Source: Actinomycetes bacterium (lineage in GTDB: Bacteria; Actinomycetota; Acidimicrobiia; Acidimicrobiales; RAAP-2). From it: a stretch of 64,000 nucleotides of DNA. The number at the start of each line of letters is the position of its first letter. The first letter of the stretch is position 1. The position numbers and the translations under genes are program-made. The stretch is from contig JAJYQJ010000111.1 in assembly GCA_021794655.1 (NCBI GenBank), positions 16,462 to 80,461 of the forward strand, in the 5' to 3' direction. Shown one piece after another: positions 57,892-64,000 of this stretch. The notes beneath the pieces were generated by a model that was not told where the DNA came from, searched no databases, and saw only the letters and a list, made by a program, of their open reading frames with translations.

Positions 57892-58863
57892 GTGATGTTG
57901 GGTCATAGCGTGATGGCGCCCGAGGGTGTCCAAGCACTCCAGGTCTTGACCGTGATGCTCGGCGCCCCGCTCGTAAGCGGGGCTATCTCGCACGTCGAAG
58001 GTCGGCTGCAAGGGAGGCGGGGGCCGCGGATCCTCCAGCCCTACTACGACATAGCGAAGCTCTTCAGGAAAGAGACGGTCGTCACCGAAGAGTCGAGTTG
58101 GGTGTTCCTCATCGGACCGGTTATCGCTTTCGGCTGTTACTTGATCGTTCCGTTGTTGATCCCGGTACTCACGACCTACGGGCTCCCTCTCGGCTACATG
58201 GGTGACATCTTGGGCGGCGGATTCGTCCTCGCTCTCGGCGGTTTCGCAGTCGCGATCGCGGGAACCGATTCCGGCGCTCCCTACGCTCAGCTCGGCTCAA
58301 GCCGCGCAATGACGTTTGGTGCGCTCATCGAGCCGACGATCCTATTTGTCGTATTCGCGGTCGCTATCATCACGAGCACCGATCTGCCCTACGCGCTCGC
58401 GGCGACCGTACGGTCGTCGTCGGCCGAGATGGTCGGTCCGAGCCACGTCCTCGCAGCGGCTGCGTTCTTTCTCGTCGTTCTGGCTGACACCGGGCGGATA
58501 CCCGTCGAGACGCACTCTGGAACTCTCGAGTTCGGGATGATCGACGAGGCCCGTACTCTTGAACACTCGGGGCCACCACTCGCGCTCTTGACATGGGGAG
58601 CAGCGATGAAACAGCTAATTCTCTACACGATCTTGATCAACGTATTTGTTGCACCGTGGGGGTTGGCGGCGTCGGGAAATCCTGCGGCAGTCGCTCTCGC
58701 TGTCCCTTCGTTGCTCGGCAAGGCAGTCGCTCTCGGCCTAGTTTTCGCGGTGATCGATAACCTGTTTTCAAAGCTCCGGTTGTTCAAGATCACCGAGTTC
58801 ATAGCCGCCGCATTCCTCCTTGCGGTCCTCGCGGTATTCCTATTCTTCGCCGGAGGTGGATGA
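57892..58863 (+). CDS. HycD/HyfC/NuoH-like membrane subunit
   Basis: VEGRLQGRRGPRILQPYYDIAKLFRKE and IPVETHSGTLEFGMIDEARTLEHSG (compare the P-F-D-x-x-E-A-E-x-E region). GGAGG RBS. Confidence 0.85.
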   Translation: MMLGHSVMAPEGVQALQVLTVMLGAPLVSGAISHVEGRLQGRRGPRILQPYYDIAKLFRKETVVTEESSWVFLIGPVIAFGCYLIVPLLIPVLTTYGLPLGYMGDILGGGFVLALGGFAVAIAGTDSGAPYAQLGSSRAMTFGALIEPTILFVVFAVAIITSTDLPYALAATVRSSSAEMVGPSHVLAAAAFFLVVLADTGRIPVETHSGTLEFGMIDEARTLEHSGPPLALLTWGAAMKQLILYTILINVFVAPWGLAASGNPAAVALAVPSLLGKAVALGLVFAVIDNLFSKLRLFKITEFIAAAFLLAVLAVFLFFAGGG

Positions 58864-59528
58864 TGCACTCTGCGCCGACGACGTATGCCGGAGTAGCAGA
58901 CGTGATAGCGGTCTTAGTCCTGTTGACTGAGTTCGCGATGCTTAGAGCCCCGTTGCTTCGCTCCCAGGTTCGCCTCTACATGTTTCAATCGCTGGTCGTG
59001 ACAGCCCTCGCCGTCGTCGTCGCAGCGACTCGTCATATTGATGAACTTTACGTTCTGGCACTACTTTCGTTCGCTCTAAAGGTCGTGCTCGTCCCGAACT
59101 TGGTGCTTCGCCTGCTGCGCGATGCAGACGTAGACCTGGCTGGAAGCTCGGTCCTTGGTGTCGCGAGTATGACACTCATTGCGATCGGCGTATCGGCTTT
59201 CGGATTCTTTGCGGTCGGTTCGTTGCACGTCCATTCGACGGCACTTCCGACCACCGCACTCGCCGTCGCCGCCGCAGTCGTCCTCGTCGCGTTCGTGCTG
59301 ATCATCTTACGTTCTGACGTTGTATCCCAGGCTATCGGCTTCTTCTCCTTGGAGAACGGGATATCAGTCGCGAGCTTGGTCGTCGCGGCGGGTATGCCAG
59401 TCGTCGTCGAAGTGGCGTTCCTCTTCGACTTGTTGGTCGCGGTCGTCGTCTTCGGGGTGATCATGCGAGTTCACCACGGCCGGACCAAGACACTCTCTAC
59501 TGACGAGCTCGATCGGCTGAAGGGTTAG
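58860..59528 (+). CDS. HyfE/HycP-like (NuoK-related) membrane subunit
   Basis: 222 aa, 6-7 TM helices, positioned as in hyf/hyc-type operons, 4-nt overlap with the previous gene. Confidence 0.7.
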   Translation: MMHSAPTTYAGVADVIAVLVLLTEFAMLRAPLLRSQVRLYMFQSLVVTALAVVVAATRHIDELYVLALLSFALKVVLVPNLVLRLLRDADVDLAGSSVLGVASMTLIAIGVSAFGFFAVGSLHVHSTALPTTALAVAAAVVLVAFVLIILRSDVVSQAIGFFSLENGISVASLVVAAGMPVVVEVAFLFDLLVAVVVFGVIMRVHHGRTKTLSTDELDRLKG

Positions 59529-59530
59529 TA

Positions 59531-62547: not shown

Positions 62548-63389
62548 TGCCTTGGATACCAAGAGGGTTGCACGACGGTGTAGTCACCACTCGATATCCT
62601 CGTCGAGCGGACGGATACGGCGAAGGATTCCACGCTGCAGTCGACGTAGAACCGGGAGCTGCAGTTGACGATCGCGCATATGCGGCCGTGACGGCGTGTC
62701 CGACGGACTCTATTTCAATTGCAGGTTCAACAACAGGCGGCCGGCTCCACCTCGATAGAGGTCGCTGCATCCTTTGTAGACGTTGCGTCGACATATGTCC
62801 TCGGGCGTTCCGGTTCACCTCGGACTTCGAAGTATCAACGCAGCAGCGTAACCACTTGATCGTGCCCGACTTGGAGGAGGACGACGCGACCCTAGCTCGC
62901 ACTCGTGACGAGTTGGCGCGGCGCGTGAGGATACTGCGACGCTCGCTTCACGTCCGTCACGTCGACGCTGGTTCCGACGGCGCCGACGAATGGGAGGTGG
63001 CCGCTTTGATGAACCCGATTTACGACGTGCAGCGCCTCGGAATCTACTTTACGGCCAGCCCGCGCCATGCTGATCTACTGTTGGTCACAGGGGTAGGGTC
63101 ACTCGGGATGATCGACTCGCTCGCAGAGACCTTCGAGGTCATGCCTGAGCCAAAGGTCGTTATCGCCGCCGGTGTCGACGCAATCAGTGGTGGCATCCTC
63201 CGCGATGGATACGCCTCGAGCGCCGGGGTCACCGACTTGGTCCCAGTCGACGTACTCGTGCCTGGCAACCCGGCGAGCCCGTTTGGCTTGCTCCATGGGA
63301 TCTTGCTGGCGGTCGGCCTTCTTAAAGAGTCTCGTGGTCACGCAGTTCGCCCGTCGACGAACTCTAAAGCATCGGTTGAACCAAAGTGA
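62547..63389 (+). CDS. fused HycF-like (single 4Fe-4S motif) plus HycG/NuoB-like small subunit; the NuoB-like part is completely Cys-free
   Basis: GVVTTRYP, ACPTDSI, CILCRRCVDICP; then HVRHVDAGSDGADEWEV, FTASPRHADLLLVTG, MPEPKVVIAAGVDAISGG, PVDVLVPGNPASP. Confidence 0.8.
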   Translation: MPWIPRGLHDGVVTTRYPRRADGYGEGFHAAVDVEPGAAVDDRAYAAVTACPTDSISIAGSTTGGRLHLDRGRCILCRRCVDICPRAFRFTSDFEVSTQQRNHLIVPDLEEDDATLARTRDELARRVRILRRSLHVRHVDAGSDGADEWEVAALMNPIYDVQRLGIYFTASPRHADLLLVTGVGSLGMIDSLAETFEVMPEPKVVIAAGVDAISGGILRDGYASSAGVTDLVPVDVLVPGNPASPFGLLHGILLAVGLLKESRGHAVRPSTNSKASVEPK

Positions 63390-64000
63390 GCAGTGCCCTC
63401 TTGGTGACGGCGCTGGCCTGTTTTGCCCTAGGAGGGCTCGTCGACTTGATATTTGGCGTAGAGCGCACGGCGATCCGGGTCATTACCTACCTCCTTGCTA
63501 CCGCCGGTAGTGCCTCCCTGACGGTGCTCGGTGTCACTGCGACCGTGTCTAGAGCTTCGAGTATCGATCTATTTGACGTTTTTGGATTTAGACACAGTGC
63601 ACTTCACGTCGACAGGTTGTCGGGACTGTTCTTGACGTTGCTATTTGGCATCGCGGTAGCGGTCTCTTGTTGTTTCATGTCATGGGCTCGCCCTAGCGAC
63701 AGGGAGCACCGTCGTGGTCTCGCCTCTGGATACCTCTTGTTGTTGGGGTCGGTCGCGGTCATCATCTGCGCGTCGGACGCCTTTACTTTCTTGTTTGCGT
63801 GGGAGACACTAACGATTTCGTTCTATGTCCTGACCGCTGTCTCCCGCTCGCAGCGACGTCAAGCCGGCGCGGCGTGGTCGACGGTTAGCATGGGCAAAGT
63901 CAGCGGCGCCGCTCTACTGGTTGGTTTCTTACTGCTCGCCGGGCGCACCGGAAGCTTGACGATAGCGAGCTGGCACGCGGTTGGACCGGGCGCAGTTCAC
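63386..64000 (+). CDS. HyfB/NuoL-like antiporter-type subunit, N-terminal part (runs off the right edge)
   Basis: GTG 63386 forms a GTGA overlap with the previous stop. My own translation: VSSALLVTALACFALGG...FLFAWETLTISFYVL... Not in the ORF track because there is no stop before the edge. Confidence 0.7.
   Translation, partial: MSSALLVTALACFALGGLVDLIFGVERTAIRVITYLLATAGSASLTVLGVTATVSRASSIDLFDVFGFRHSALHVDRLSGLFLTLLFGIAVAVSCCFMSWARPSDREHRRGLASGYLLLLGSVAVIICASDAFTFLFAWETLTISFYVLTAVSRSQRRQAGAAWSTVSMGKVSGAALLVGFLLLAGRTGSLTIASWHAVGPGAVH

Follow-up and report, generated by a model that had tools for sequence, protein, structure and literature searches.

An operon for a hydrogenase-related membrane complex without NiFe ligands, preceded by a fluoride-riboswitch-type leader, in an Acidimicrobiales bacterium

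Organization of the operon and gene assignments

The right end of a 64,000-nucleotide stretch of DNA from an Actinomycetes bacterium of the order Acidimicrobiales (assembly GCA_021794655.1, contig JAJYQJ010000111.1, positions 16,462 to 80,461; called the window throughout) carries an operon whose six genes resemble those of formate hydrogenlyases and other group 4 [NiFe] hydrogenases. Its product has lost all four cysteine ligands of the NiFe site and is assigned here to the energy-converting hydrogenase related (Ehr) complexes, and a leader of the fluoride-riboswitch type lies directly upstream. The features are:

57799-57893 (+): fluoride-riboswitch-type leader (relaxed scan with Rfam RF01734 and our own covariance model R1)
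57892-58863 (+): NuoH/HycD-like membrane subunit (PF00146, 2e-34; best solved relative E. coli HycD, 2e-35)
58860-59528 (+): HyfE-like small membrane subunit (NF008556, 9e-27, 94 bits, under the cut-off of 136)
59531-61021 (+): HyfF-like antiporter-type subunit (PF00361, 7e-51; HyfF models)
61018-62547 (+): fused NuoC and NuoD/HycE-like large subunit (PF00329 and PF00346 (1e-30))
62547-63389 (+): small subunit, a HycF/NuoI-like ferredoxin domain fused to a HycG/NuoB-like domain (PF01058 and ferredoxin motif)
63386-64000 (+), open to the window edge: HyfB/HycC-like antiporter-type subunit (HyfB model, 3e-20)

All six genes lie on one strand and most of them overlap, with junctions of 4, 4, 1 and 4 shared nucleotides and one 2-nt gap. 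An earlier sequence-only reading of this DNA had described a six-gene Hyf/Hyc-type module with these coordinates and overlaps, and the open reading frames (ORFs) together with the profile searches bear this out. The likely start of the NuoH/HycD-like gene is the ATG at 57895, 6 nt past the Shine-Dalgarno sequence, whereas the JGI gene call starts at 57913. For the HyfF-like subunit, HyfF models gave up to 372 bits (5e-111), which is under their cut-off. The closest solved relatives were HycD (2e-35), HycC (3e-32) and HycG (3e-27), with MrpD (2e-26) for the antiporter-type homology. On an identical JGI metagenome contig (L001) the HyfB-like gene is complete and encodes 672 amino acids; a Usp gene follows 13 nt 3' of it, and then come convergent genes on the opposite strand. 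The small subunit is called by JGI as a protein of 177 amino acids with a start equivalent to 62856, and this call omits the conserved N-terminal ferredoxin-like domain (window 62547-62855), so that the only remaining Fe-S cluster of the complex is missing from the public gene call.

For comparison, a one-genome-per-species scan yielded 118 relatives, and 80 loci were fetched. No NuoEFG, FdhH, carbon monoxide dehydrogenase or hyp genes were found among the scanned ORFs of the window (30 of the larger ones and the immediate neighbours of the operon), in line with the previous statement that NuoEFG-type genes are missing from the window, and none of these partner genes appeared among the Pfam labels computed beforehand for the 7.5 kb past the window edge. 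Similarly, the flanks of the approximately 80 loci contained no partner dehydrogenase, electron-donor or maturation genes. Separate genes for NuoA, NuoJ or NuoK were not found, HycB, FdhF, HyfA, HyfD and maturation genes are absent near the operon, and equivalents of MrpB, C, E, F and G are absent too, with only MrpA/D-type homologues being found.

Loss of the NiFe site in the large subunit

The register of the large subunit was established by residue alignments to the solved structures of MbhL (6cfw), HycE (7z0s) and Nqo4 (2fug). The segment ERYEGVASVAH aligns on the motif R-x-C-G-x-C-x3-H and places E201 and A204 at the two cysteine positions. At the C-terminus, FGVSIAG was placed on D-P-C-x-x-C, with S503 and G506 at the cysteine positions; here the MbhL alignment ends at query residue 499 (IEAS), and the register of this second motif (L2) past residue 499 is an extension, which agrees with aligned relatives that keep all four cysteines (LINKSFELCYACxDR). 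All four NiFe cysteines are therefore substituted (E201, A204, S503 and G506), as the sequence-only reading had proposed, and the landmarks of the fold that it had listed are kept (WYEREIHDLFGL, GPVRSG, GEDI and HRGIE). Among 81 orthologues, residues E201, G202, A207, E497, S499, F500, G501, S503, A505 and G506 of the large subunit are invariant. Such invariance of the substituted positions means that the pattern is due neither to chance nor to a sequencing error.

The quinone-site residues His38 and Tyr87 of Nqo4 (T. thermophilus numbering) align with F153 and G202, indicating that the former active site is not a quinone site either. As modelled by AlphaFold, with a predicted template modelling score (pTM) of 0.83, the large subunit had its best match in E. 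coli HycE (7z0s_E; template modelling score 0.79), from which its fold is predicted to be intact.

Loss of Fe-S clusters in the small subunit

In the HycG/NuoB-like domain, the cysteines that bind the proximal cluster in HycG and MbhJ align with D144, D147, D211 and N241 of the window protein, the corresponding motifs being VDAGSDGADEWE, AGVDAISGG and VPGNPASP. Across the family these four positions are occupied by D (79/79), E/D (77/79), D/E (79/79) and S (73/79), which means that the metal ligands have been replaced by a conserved acidic set. In the HycF-like domain, motif 1 is without its first three cysteines and retains its CP cysteine (C51), and motif 2 (C-x2-C-x2-C) is retained as C74, C77 and C80. 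These four cysteines are invariant (79/79) and C84 is variable. In MbsN, the distal cluster is bound by C61, C64, C67 and C106 and the medial cluster by C71, C96, C99 and C102 (PMC8165549), and on the basis of this assignment C51, C74, C77 and C80 correspond to the ligands of the medial [4Fe-4S] cluster. Judged from these alignments, the proximal and distal clusters are gone and a single, isolated medial [4Fe-4S] cluster remains. In complex I, NDH, the membrane-bound hydrogenase (MBH), the membrane-bound sulfane reductase (MBS) and all characterised relatives, three [4Fe-4S] clusters form a conserved chain (PMC8165549). That no electron path leads to the former active site is well supported.

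The source annotations ("formate hydrogenlyase subunit 5", "Ni,Fe-hydrogenase III large subunit") and reviews on fluoride would make the complex a true formate hydrogenlyase or [NiFe] hydrogenase of group 4, and HycE is indeed the closest fold. Yet every family member lacks the four NiFe cysteines, the four proximal-cluster cysteines and the distal cluster, and no fdhF or hyp genes lie nearby, so that this assignment, already contradicted by the sequence, is scarcely credible. With the NiFe ligands, the proximal-cluster cysteines and the quinone His/Tyr pair all missing, the complex is neither a hydrogenase nor a standard complex I, as had been claimed before.

Alternatively, in keeping with the common hypothesis for Ehr complexes, the complex might still be a redox enzyme, in which the remaining [4Fe-4S] cluster would accept electrons from ferredoxin and a new metal centre or cofactor with non-cysteine ligands (E201/D144/E147/D211) would reduce a substrate and drive ion pumping. 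The invariance of the medial-cluster cysteines speaks for such an enzyme, the conserved carboxylates could bind a hard metal, and, as MBS shows, relatives can take on another substrate and use an Fe-S cluster for catalysis (PMC8165549). However, the ligands of the proximal cluster, which in all solved relatives connects the medial cluster with the pocket, are all gone, the distal entry cluster is gone as well, and genes for an electron donor are lacking in the approximately 80 loci. Also, a [4Fe-4S] cluster ligated by Asp/Glu/Asp/Ser is not known to us, and we consider a redox enzyme of this kind unlikely.

Conservation of the operon in other genomes

Among database homologues of the large subunit, the best 120, with 60-71% identity and from Acidimicrobiales metagenome-assembled genomes (MAGs), all contain ER-x-EGVASVAH and EASFG-x-S-x-AG. 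Carriers of the operon are mostly soil and peat Acidimicrobiales, together with MAGs of Mycobacteriales, Pseudonocardiaceae and Acidothermus, and they also include a cultured Micromonospora. The gene order is unchanged in all 80 loci, which come from 80 different species, and the six ORFs are intact and translationally coupled in these genomes. That the remodelled site is under purifying selection, and not decaying, is well supported, because the substitutions themselves are invariant across about 80 species.

The NuoH-, HyfE- and HyfF-like subunits are conserved better than the cap subunits. In the NuoH-like subunit (68 orthologues), E206, H208, E213, E224 and K240 show no variation and D218 and E219 very little, and in the HyfE-like subunit E165 and N166 are invariant. 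The HyfF-like subunit (72 orthologues) has invariant E132, K220 (NuoM K234), H227, H234, E308 and K339, and its E394 (NuoM E407) is conserved to at least 97%. For the HyfB-like subunit (71 orthologues), K214 and E397 are invariant and E135 and K342 are conserved to at least 97%. The acidic residues of the NuoH loop and the antiporter-type Glu of transmembrane helix (TM) 5, Lys of TM7 and Glu of TM12 are thus retained. The position of NuoM K265, the TM8 Lys, is occupied by A251 in the HyfF-like subunit and by N245 in the HyfB-like subunit (L001 12384-14402), whereas the equivalent Lys is present in MbhH, MrpD and HycC. The proton path is therefore not canonical. A dead pump, as might be read from the absent TM8 Lys, was not accepted, as Asn occupies this position also in paralogous Ehr subunits and in HyfB of Pseudofrankia.

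Relationship to Ehr complexes and other known systems

An exhaustive search of 1.84 billion representatives with the large subunit gave 333 matches below 1e-30. The top 150 representatives include 109 full-length sequences, 17 with all four cysteines, one with three and the rest cysteine-less in many patterns (SSSG, SESG, EASG and more), and every close relative in this set is cysteine-less. Since the nearest relatives have also lost their cysteines, membership of the complex in a large Ehr radiation is well supported, which strengthens the fit to Ehr suggested by the sequence-only reading. The Ehr class is named in the literature, where its members are excluded from HydDB as non-hydrogenases and described without an assigned function. 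Like other Ehr complexes, the one studied here has a large subunit homologous to group 4 enzymes that is without NiFe ligands and is encoded with NuoH-like and antiporter-like subunits. It differs from them in the loss of the proximal and distal [4Fe-4S] clusters, in the fusion of HycF and HycG, in the Glu/Asp residues at former ligand positions and in the fluoride riboswitch upstream. The earlier description of this example as even more degenerate than other Ehr complexes therefore holds, inasmuch as two Fe-S clusters are lost in addition to the NiFe site. The Ehr class is diverse and widely distributed, and the top-scoring large-subunit relatives are for the most part cysteine-less.

The E. 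coli Hyc (7z0s) and Hyf complexes provide the closest solved relatives of every subunit, and HyfE and HyfF of the Hyf type are present here, but the NiFe site is missing and only one of three Fe-S clusters remains in the HycF/HycG part. With P. furiosus MBH and MBS and with complex I the complex shares the Q-module/P-module architecture, the NuoH-loop acids and the Glu, Lys and Glu of TM5, TM7 and TM12, but it has the medial cluster only, lacks the quinone His/Tyr pair and an N-module, and has its TM8 Lys replaced. The MrpA/MrpD-type subunits of Mrp antiporters are homologous to the antiporter-like subunits, and the drive by ion gradients, independent of redox input, that is proposed for the complex would be shared with Mrp. 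Mrp, in contrast, is a seven-subunit set (MrpA-G) that includes MrpB, C, E, F and G and has no counterparts of NuoH, NuoD, NuoB and NuoI. The complex is not a member of the Mrp family, although it may work like one.

Paralogous Ehr clusters lie beside the operon in about 8 of the 80 loci, with 33-45% identity and the same gene order:

L077 800-6360 (-): paralogous Ehr cluster
L047 1-6520 (-): paralogous Ehr cluster
L076 14778-19618 (+): paralogous Ehr cluster
L032 13285-18866 (-): paralogous Ehr cluster
L020, L038 and L055: also with a paralogous Ehr cluster

The large subunit of the adjacent paralogue is cysteine-less as well (ER-x-EGLSAVAN ... IIEASFWLTVAG); its separate HycG keeps the four proximal-cluster cysteines, and its HycF keeps the medial cluster only. 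From such neighbours one might suppose that the complex of the window is a non-transporting remnant, that is, a sensor, a scaffold or assembly partner of the paralogous Ehr complex, or a complex being lost. The Usp gene downstream would suit this supposition, and a lone Fe-S cluster could act as a sensor of O2 or NO. About 90% of the loci are without an adjacent paralogue, however, the residues of the membrane channel are invariant, and the intact, coupled state of all six ORFs in 80 species does not look like loss, which makes a remnant quite improbable.

The sequence-only reading had equated the gene set with that of M. tuberculosis Rv0082-Rv0087 in circularly permuted order. The gene order of rv0082-rv0087 has been reported (PMC6901956), and Pseudofrankia sp. 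DC12 (L082 9598-17398) carries a cluster in the M. tuberculosis rv0081-rv0087 order, which runs ArsR-type regulator, small subunit, HyfB, HycD, HyfE, HyfF and large subunit. Gene content and circular permutation are confirmed, the same six protein families being present, but the relationship is one of paralogy and not of a shared family. The Pseudofrankia large subunit is cysteine-less with an STSG pattern (AERISGDTAVGHA ... NKSFNLSYAGNDL). In contrast to the fused subunit of the window, the Pseudofrankia small subunit of 158 amino acids keeps the proximal-cluster cysteines and has no HycF-like ferredoxin domain, and an ArsR-type regulator gene is found upstream instead of a riboswitch match. 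As far as can be judged from Pseudofrankia, in which it was examined, this type of cluster appears to form a separate paralogous family. By analogy, clusters of the rv0081-rv0087 type that are annotated as putative [NiFe] hydrogenase or formate hydrogenlyase may also encode Ehr complexes.

A fluoride-riboswitch-type leader upstream of the operon

At the gathering threshold, Rfam gave no match in the whole window, and no tRNAs were found. When the 300 nt upstream of the first gene were scanned under relaxed conditions, a single match was obtained, RF01734 at 57799-57872 (+), with 20.4 bits (gathering threshold 34), an E-value of 0.003 and the full model matched. A scan of 57400-58000 for promoter and terminator consensus sequences found nothing. 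The leader consists of P1 (57808-57811/57820-57823), an inserted hairpin P1a (57825-57828/57833-57836), P2 (57841-57844/57850-57853) and a pseudoknot of the P1 loop with the tail 57858-57863. An alternative helix (57860-57869/57879-57888) covers the Shine-Dalgarno sequence GGAGG (57884-57888), and its pairing of the tail CCUCUAC(G) with (C)GUGGAGG is found in 90% across the orthologous leaders. Burial of the Shine-Dalgarno sequence by this predicted helix would correspond to the architecture of a translational ON switch.

Every one of the loci with enough upstream sequence (66/66) has the same element in front of the operon. The 5' part of its consensus is CCGGAUGA(G/U)GCCCCGG - variable hairpin - AAC(C/U)GCCC..GGGCU(G/A)AUGGC(C/U)UCUAC, and the 3' part consists of a short linker, CGCGUGGAGG and the start codon. 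Covariation was studied on an alignment of 29 leaders, with 500 shuffles and slid registers as controls. In P1, the inserted hairpin, P2 and the pseudoknot taken together, 95% of the cells are paired and seven pairs change on both sides; P1 is paired to 100% with two covarying pairs, P2 to 95%, and the pseudoknot to 94% with one-sided changes only. None of the 500 shuffles and no slid register reached the observed pairing score, and the conserved cores GAUG and CUGAUGG are invariant. With covariance model R1, which was built from this alignment, hits directly upstream of the operon scored 75.9 bits in the window, at least 46 bits in 57 loci and 27-30 bits in 7 divergent loci.

In divergent lineages the leaders are without the extra hairpin and score above the Rfam threshold. 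RF01734 gave 46.8 bits for L075, 44.3 for L081, 43.4 for L079 and 42.5 for L068, in each case directly upstream of the operon, and 46.5 bits for the Micromonospora locus (L084, GCA_003725545.1; leader at 291-400), where the match ends 42 nt before the first gene. For L024 (47.3 bits) the upstream match and the operon are about 800 nt apart, in contrast to the other five threshold-passing loci, where it is directly upstream. A minimum free energy fold of the window leader reproduces the helices, although as a single sequence it is no more stable than shuffles (z = -0.5), so that the case for a riboswitch rests on the comparative data. The core nucleotides, P1, P2 and the pseudoknot match RF01734, and orthologous leaders exceed the Rfam threshold, whereas the Acidimicrobiales leader differs from the canonical form by the hairpin between P1 and P2 and by a shifted pseudoknot sequence (GAGGCC/GGCCUC).

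Fluoride-response neighbourhood of the operon

A canonical fluoride riboswitch of 48.5 bits (L001 19983-20043 (-)) is located in the same organism about 7 kb past the right edge of the window. It heads an operon for two MutS_V proteins and a dynamin-like GTPase that is convergent on the Ehr/Usp operon. This MutS_V - MutS_V - dynamin-like GTPase trio recurs downstream in many orthologous loci. Canonical fluoride-riboswitch copies are present in the flanks of 16 of the 81 loci; a strict sequence pattern for the canonical 3' core recovered these flank copies only and passed over the variant that precedes the operon. Genes for MutS_V, Usp, CrcB-like proteins, DUF190, enolase and MFS proteins recur in the flanks; among the neighbours, crcB, DUF190, enolase, MutS-like and Usp genes belong to the classic fluoride regulon. 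In Micromonospora, a DUF190 gene lies 3' of the operon, and the large subunit (AERVEGVATVAHA ... FVEASFGLSIAGVAL) and the small subunit (VDAGSDGSDEWE, AAGTDAISGG, APGNPASP) carry the same substitutions as those of the window. Fluoride-type riboswitch control of the operon, within a fluoride-response neighbourhood, is well supported as a prediction from these comparisons.

RNAs of the crcB motif have been described in front of mutS, of genes for ion transport and of "formate hydrogen lyase" genes (PMC2864571). According to a review from 2024, the genes most often associated with fluoride riboswitches include those for formate hydrogenlyase and Na+/H+ antiporters; the review links fluoride stress to pH homeostasis and takes the formate hydrogenlyase as a metabolic shift to anaerobic fermentation (PMC11139923). 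In the literature searched we found nothing that links the fluoride-associated "formate hydrogenlyase" genes with Ehr complexes or with the loss of metal ligands. Work from 2012 reportedly also listed "formate hydrogen lyase" genes as associated with the motif. What is new here is a fluoride-riboswitch-type leader directly upstream of an Ehr-type operon. The fluoride literature has to be corrected accordingly, for in this family at least the "formate hydrogen lyase" genes cannot encode a hydrogenlyase, and the "formate hydrogenlyase" of the fluoride response is probably an ion-moving machine and not a hydrogenase.

Family-wide riboswitch control and the conservation of the cap, which needs explaining, might also suggest a machine that is specific for fluoride. 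Its carboxylate pocket, formed by the invariant acidic triad and Ser at the cubane site and by E201 at the Ni-Fe site, would bind Mg2+ or Mg-F and gate or drive the antiporter-like subunits, resulting in expulsion of fluoride/HF (hydrogen fluoride) or in fluoride-gated proton movement. But the argument is one of inference throughout. A site of this kind is not known from any fluoride transporter, many genes under riboswitch control have an indirect effect (enolase, antiporters, pyrophosphatase; PMC11139923), and the same loci often carry crcB in addition, which leaves the proposal with a low probability. In a related form, a ligand-driven machine of the complex I type, the pocket of E201, D144, E/D147, D/E211 and S241 would bind Mg2+ or Mg-fluoride, and through the NuoH loop and the antiporter-like subunits this binding would be coupled to the expulsion of fluoride or HF or to proton movement triggered by fluoride. 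This, too, is a long shot; if true, the complex would be a fluoride-resistance device of a new class, and an Ehr complex would have its function assigned for the first time.

Proposed function of the complex

The explanation that we favour, with somewhat more confidence than an even chance would give it, is that of a fluoride-riboswitch-controlled Ehr-type complex that would act as a redox-independent proton or cation translocator in pH and ion homeostasis. In the absence of fluoride, the 3' tail of the leader (GGCCUCUAC) would pair with the Shine-Dalgarno region GUGGAGG; once fluoride is bound, the aptamer pseudoknot would claim the same tail, and the coupled genes would begin to be translated. 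The membrane part would be made up of the NuoH-like, the HyfE-like and two antiporter-like subunits with their conserved Glu, Lys and His residues. The cap, having no NiFe site and neither a proximal nor a distal cluster, would hold one isolated [4Fe-4S] cluster and carboxylates at the metal-ligand positions and would serve as a structural or gating lid. Such a complex could move protons or cations without redox input, in the manner of an Mrp antiporter, and help to stabilise the pH of the cytoplasm and the membrane potential when the cell is acidified by incoming HF and fluoride leaves through Fluc channels. The sequences themselves show which genes are present, the loss of the ligands, the conservation, and the RNA element together with its covariation and its surroundings in the genomes. 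That fluoride induces the operon in this organism, that ions are translocated and that the complex has no redox role whatsoever are the parts that we infer. A role in pH homeostasis would suit the acidic peat and soils in which the carriers live, and it agrees with the prominent place of Na+/H+ antiporters in the regulon.

Several points weigh against a redox-independent translocator. Mrp works without a cap, so that the strong conservation of the cap, of its cluster and of the acidic residues at the ligand positions points to a specific role of the pocket, possibly in cation binding, gating, sensing or even fluoride chemistry. Both antiporter-like subunits lack the Lys equivalent to K265, no energy source besides ion gradients was identified, and the missing MrpB, C, E, F and G equivalents set the complex apart from Mrp. 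The aptamer of the window is under the Rfam threshold and has a U-C mismatch in its pseudoknot.

Where the sequence-only reading had left Ehr complexes with no function established, the fluoride leader and the regulon neighbourhood turn this into a testable function. With a fluoride-riboswitch leader, no usable electron wire and a cultured Micromonospora, the family provides a concrete handle on the functionally unassigned Ehr complexes. At the same time it represents a natural experiment on the coupling in complex I, as pump and cap are kept and nearly every redox centre is deleted.

Other genes in the window

Upstream of the operon, the window contains a mixed-strand gene group (53034-56332) that is not conserved beside the operon in other genomes:

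53034-53711: ArsR-type helix-turn-helix protein
53804-54280: hemerythrin
54263-55783 (-): polytopic membrane protein of 506 amino acids, no Pfam match
55714-55938: ORF labelled DUF2249 by JGI, no Pfam match in our own scan
55940-56332: Fe-S assembly protein (PF01883)

The upstream genes for the ArsR-type protein, hemerythrin, DUF2249, the membrane protein and an MFS protein were considered as partners of the complex and dropped, as they are not conserved beside the operon elsewhere.

A GAF-HisKA_3 sensor kinase and a LuxR-type response regulator with DosS/DosR-like architecture are encoded at 39933-42030, a WS/DGAT wax-ester/triacylglycerol synthase at 43878-45380 and a HipA-type toxin kinase at 36428-37735; together these genes resemble a dormancy-type set. 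The kinase and regulator pair and the M. tuberculosis parallel had suggested hypoxia control of the DosR type, a reading that was set aside in favour of the riboswitch. The region 12579-17703 encodes a B12-binding radical SAM enzyme, an ABC-2 transporter pair, an ATP-grasp enzyme similar to L-amino-acid ligases and a NifU-domain protein, and could be a small peptide or natural-product cluster. Cytochrome c maturation genes, for a CcmF-like and a second Cytochrom_C_asm protein, are located at 5465-9330 (-), and a gene for a VIT1-family iron transporter at 25127-25996 (-).

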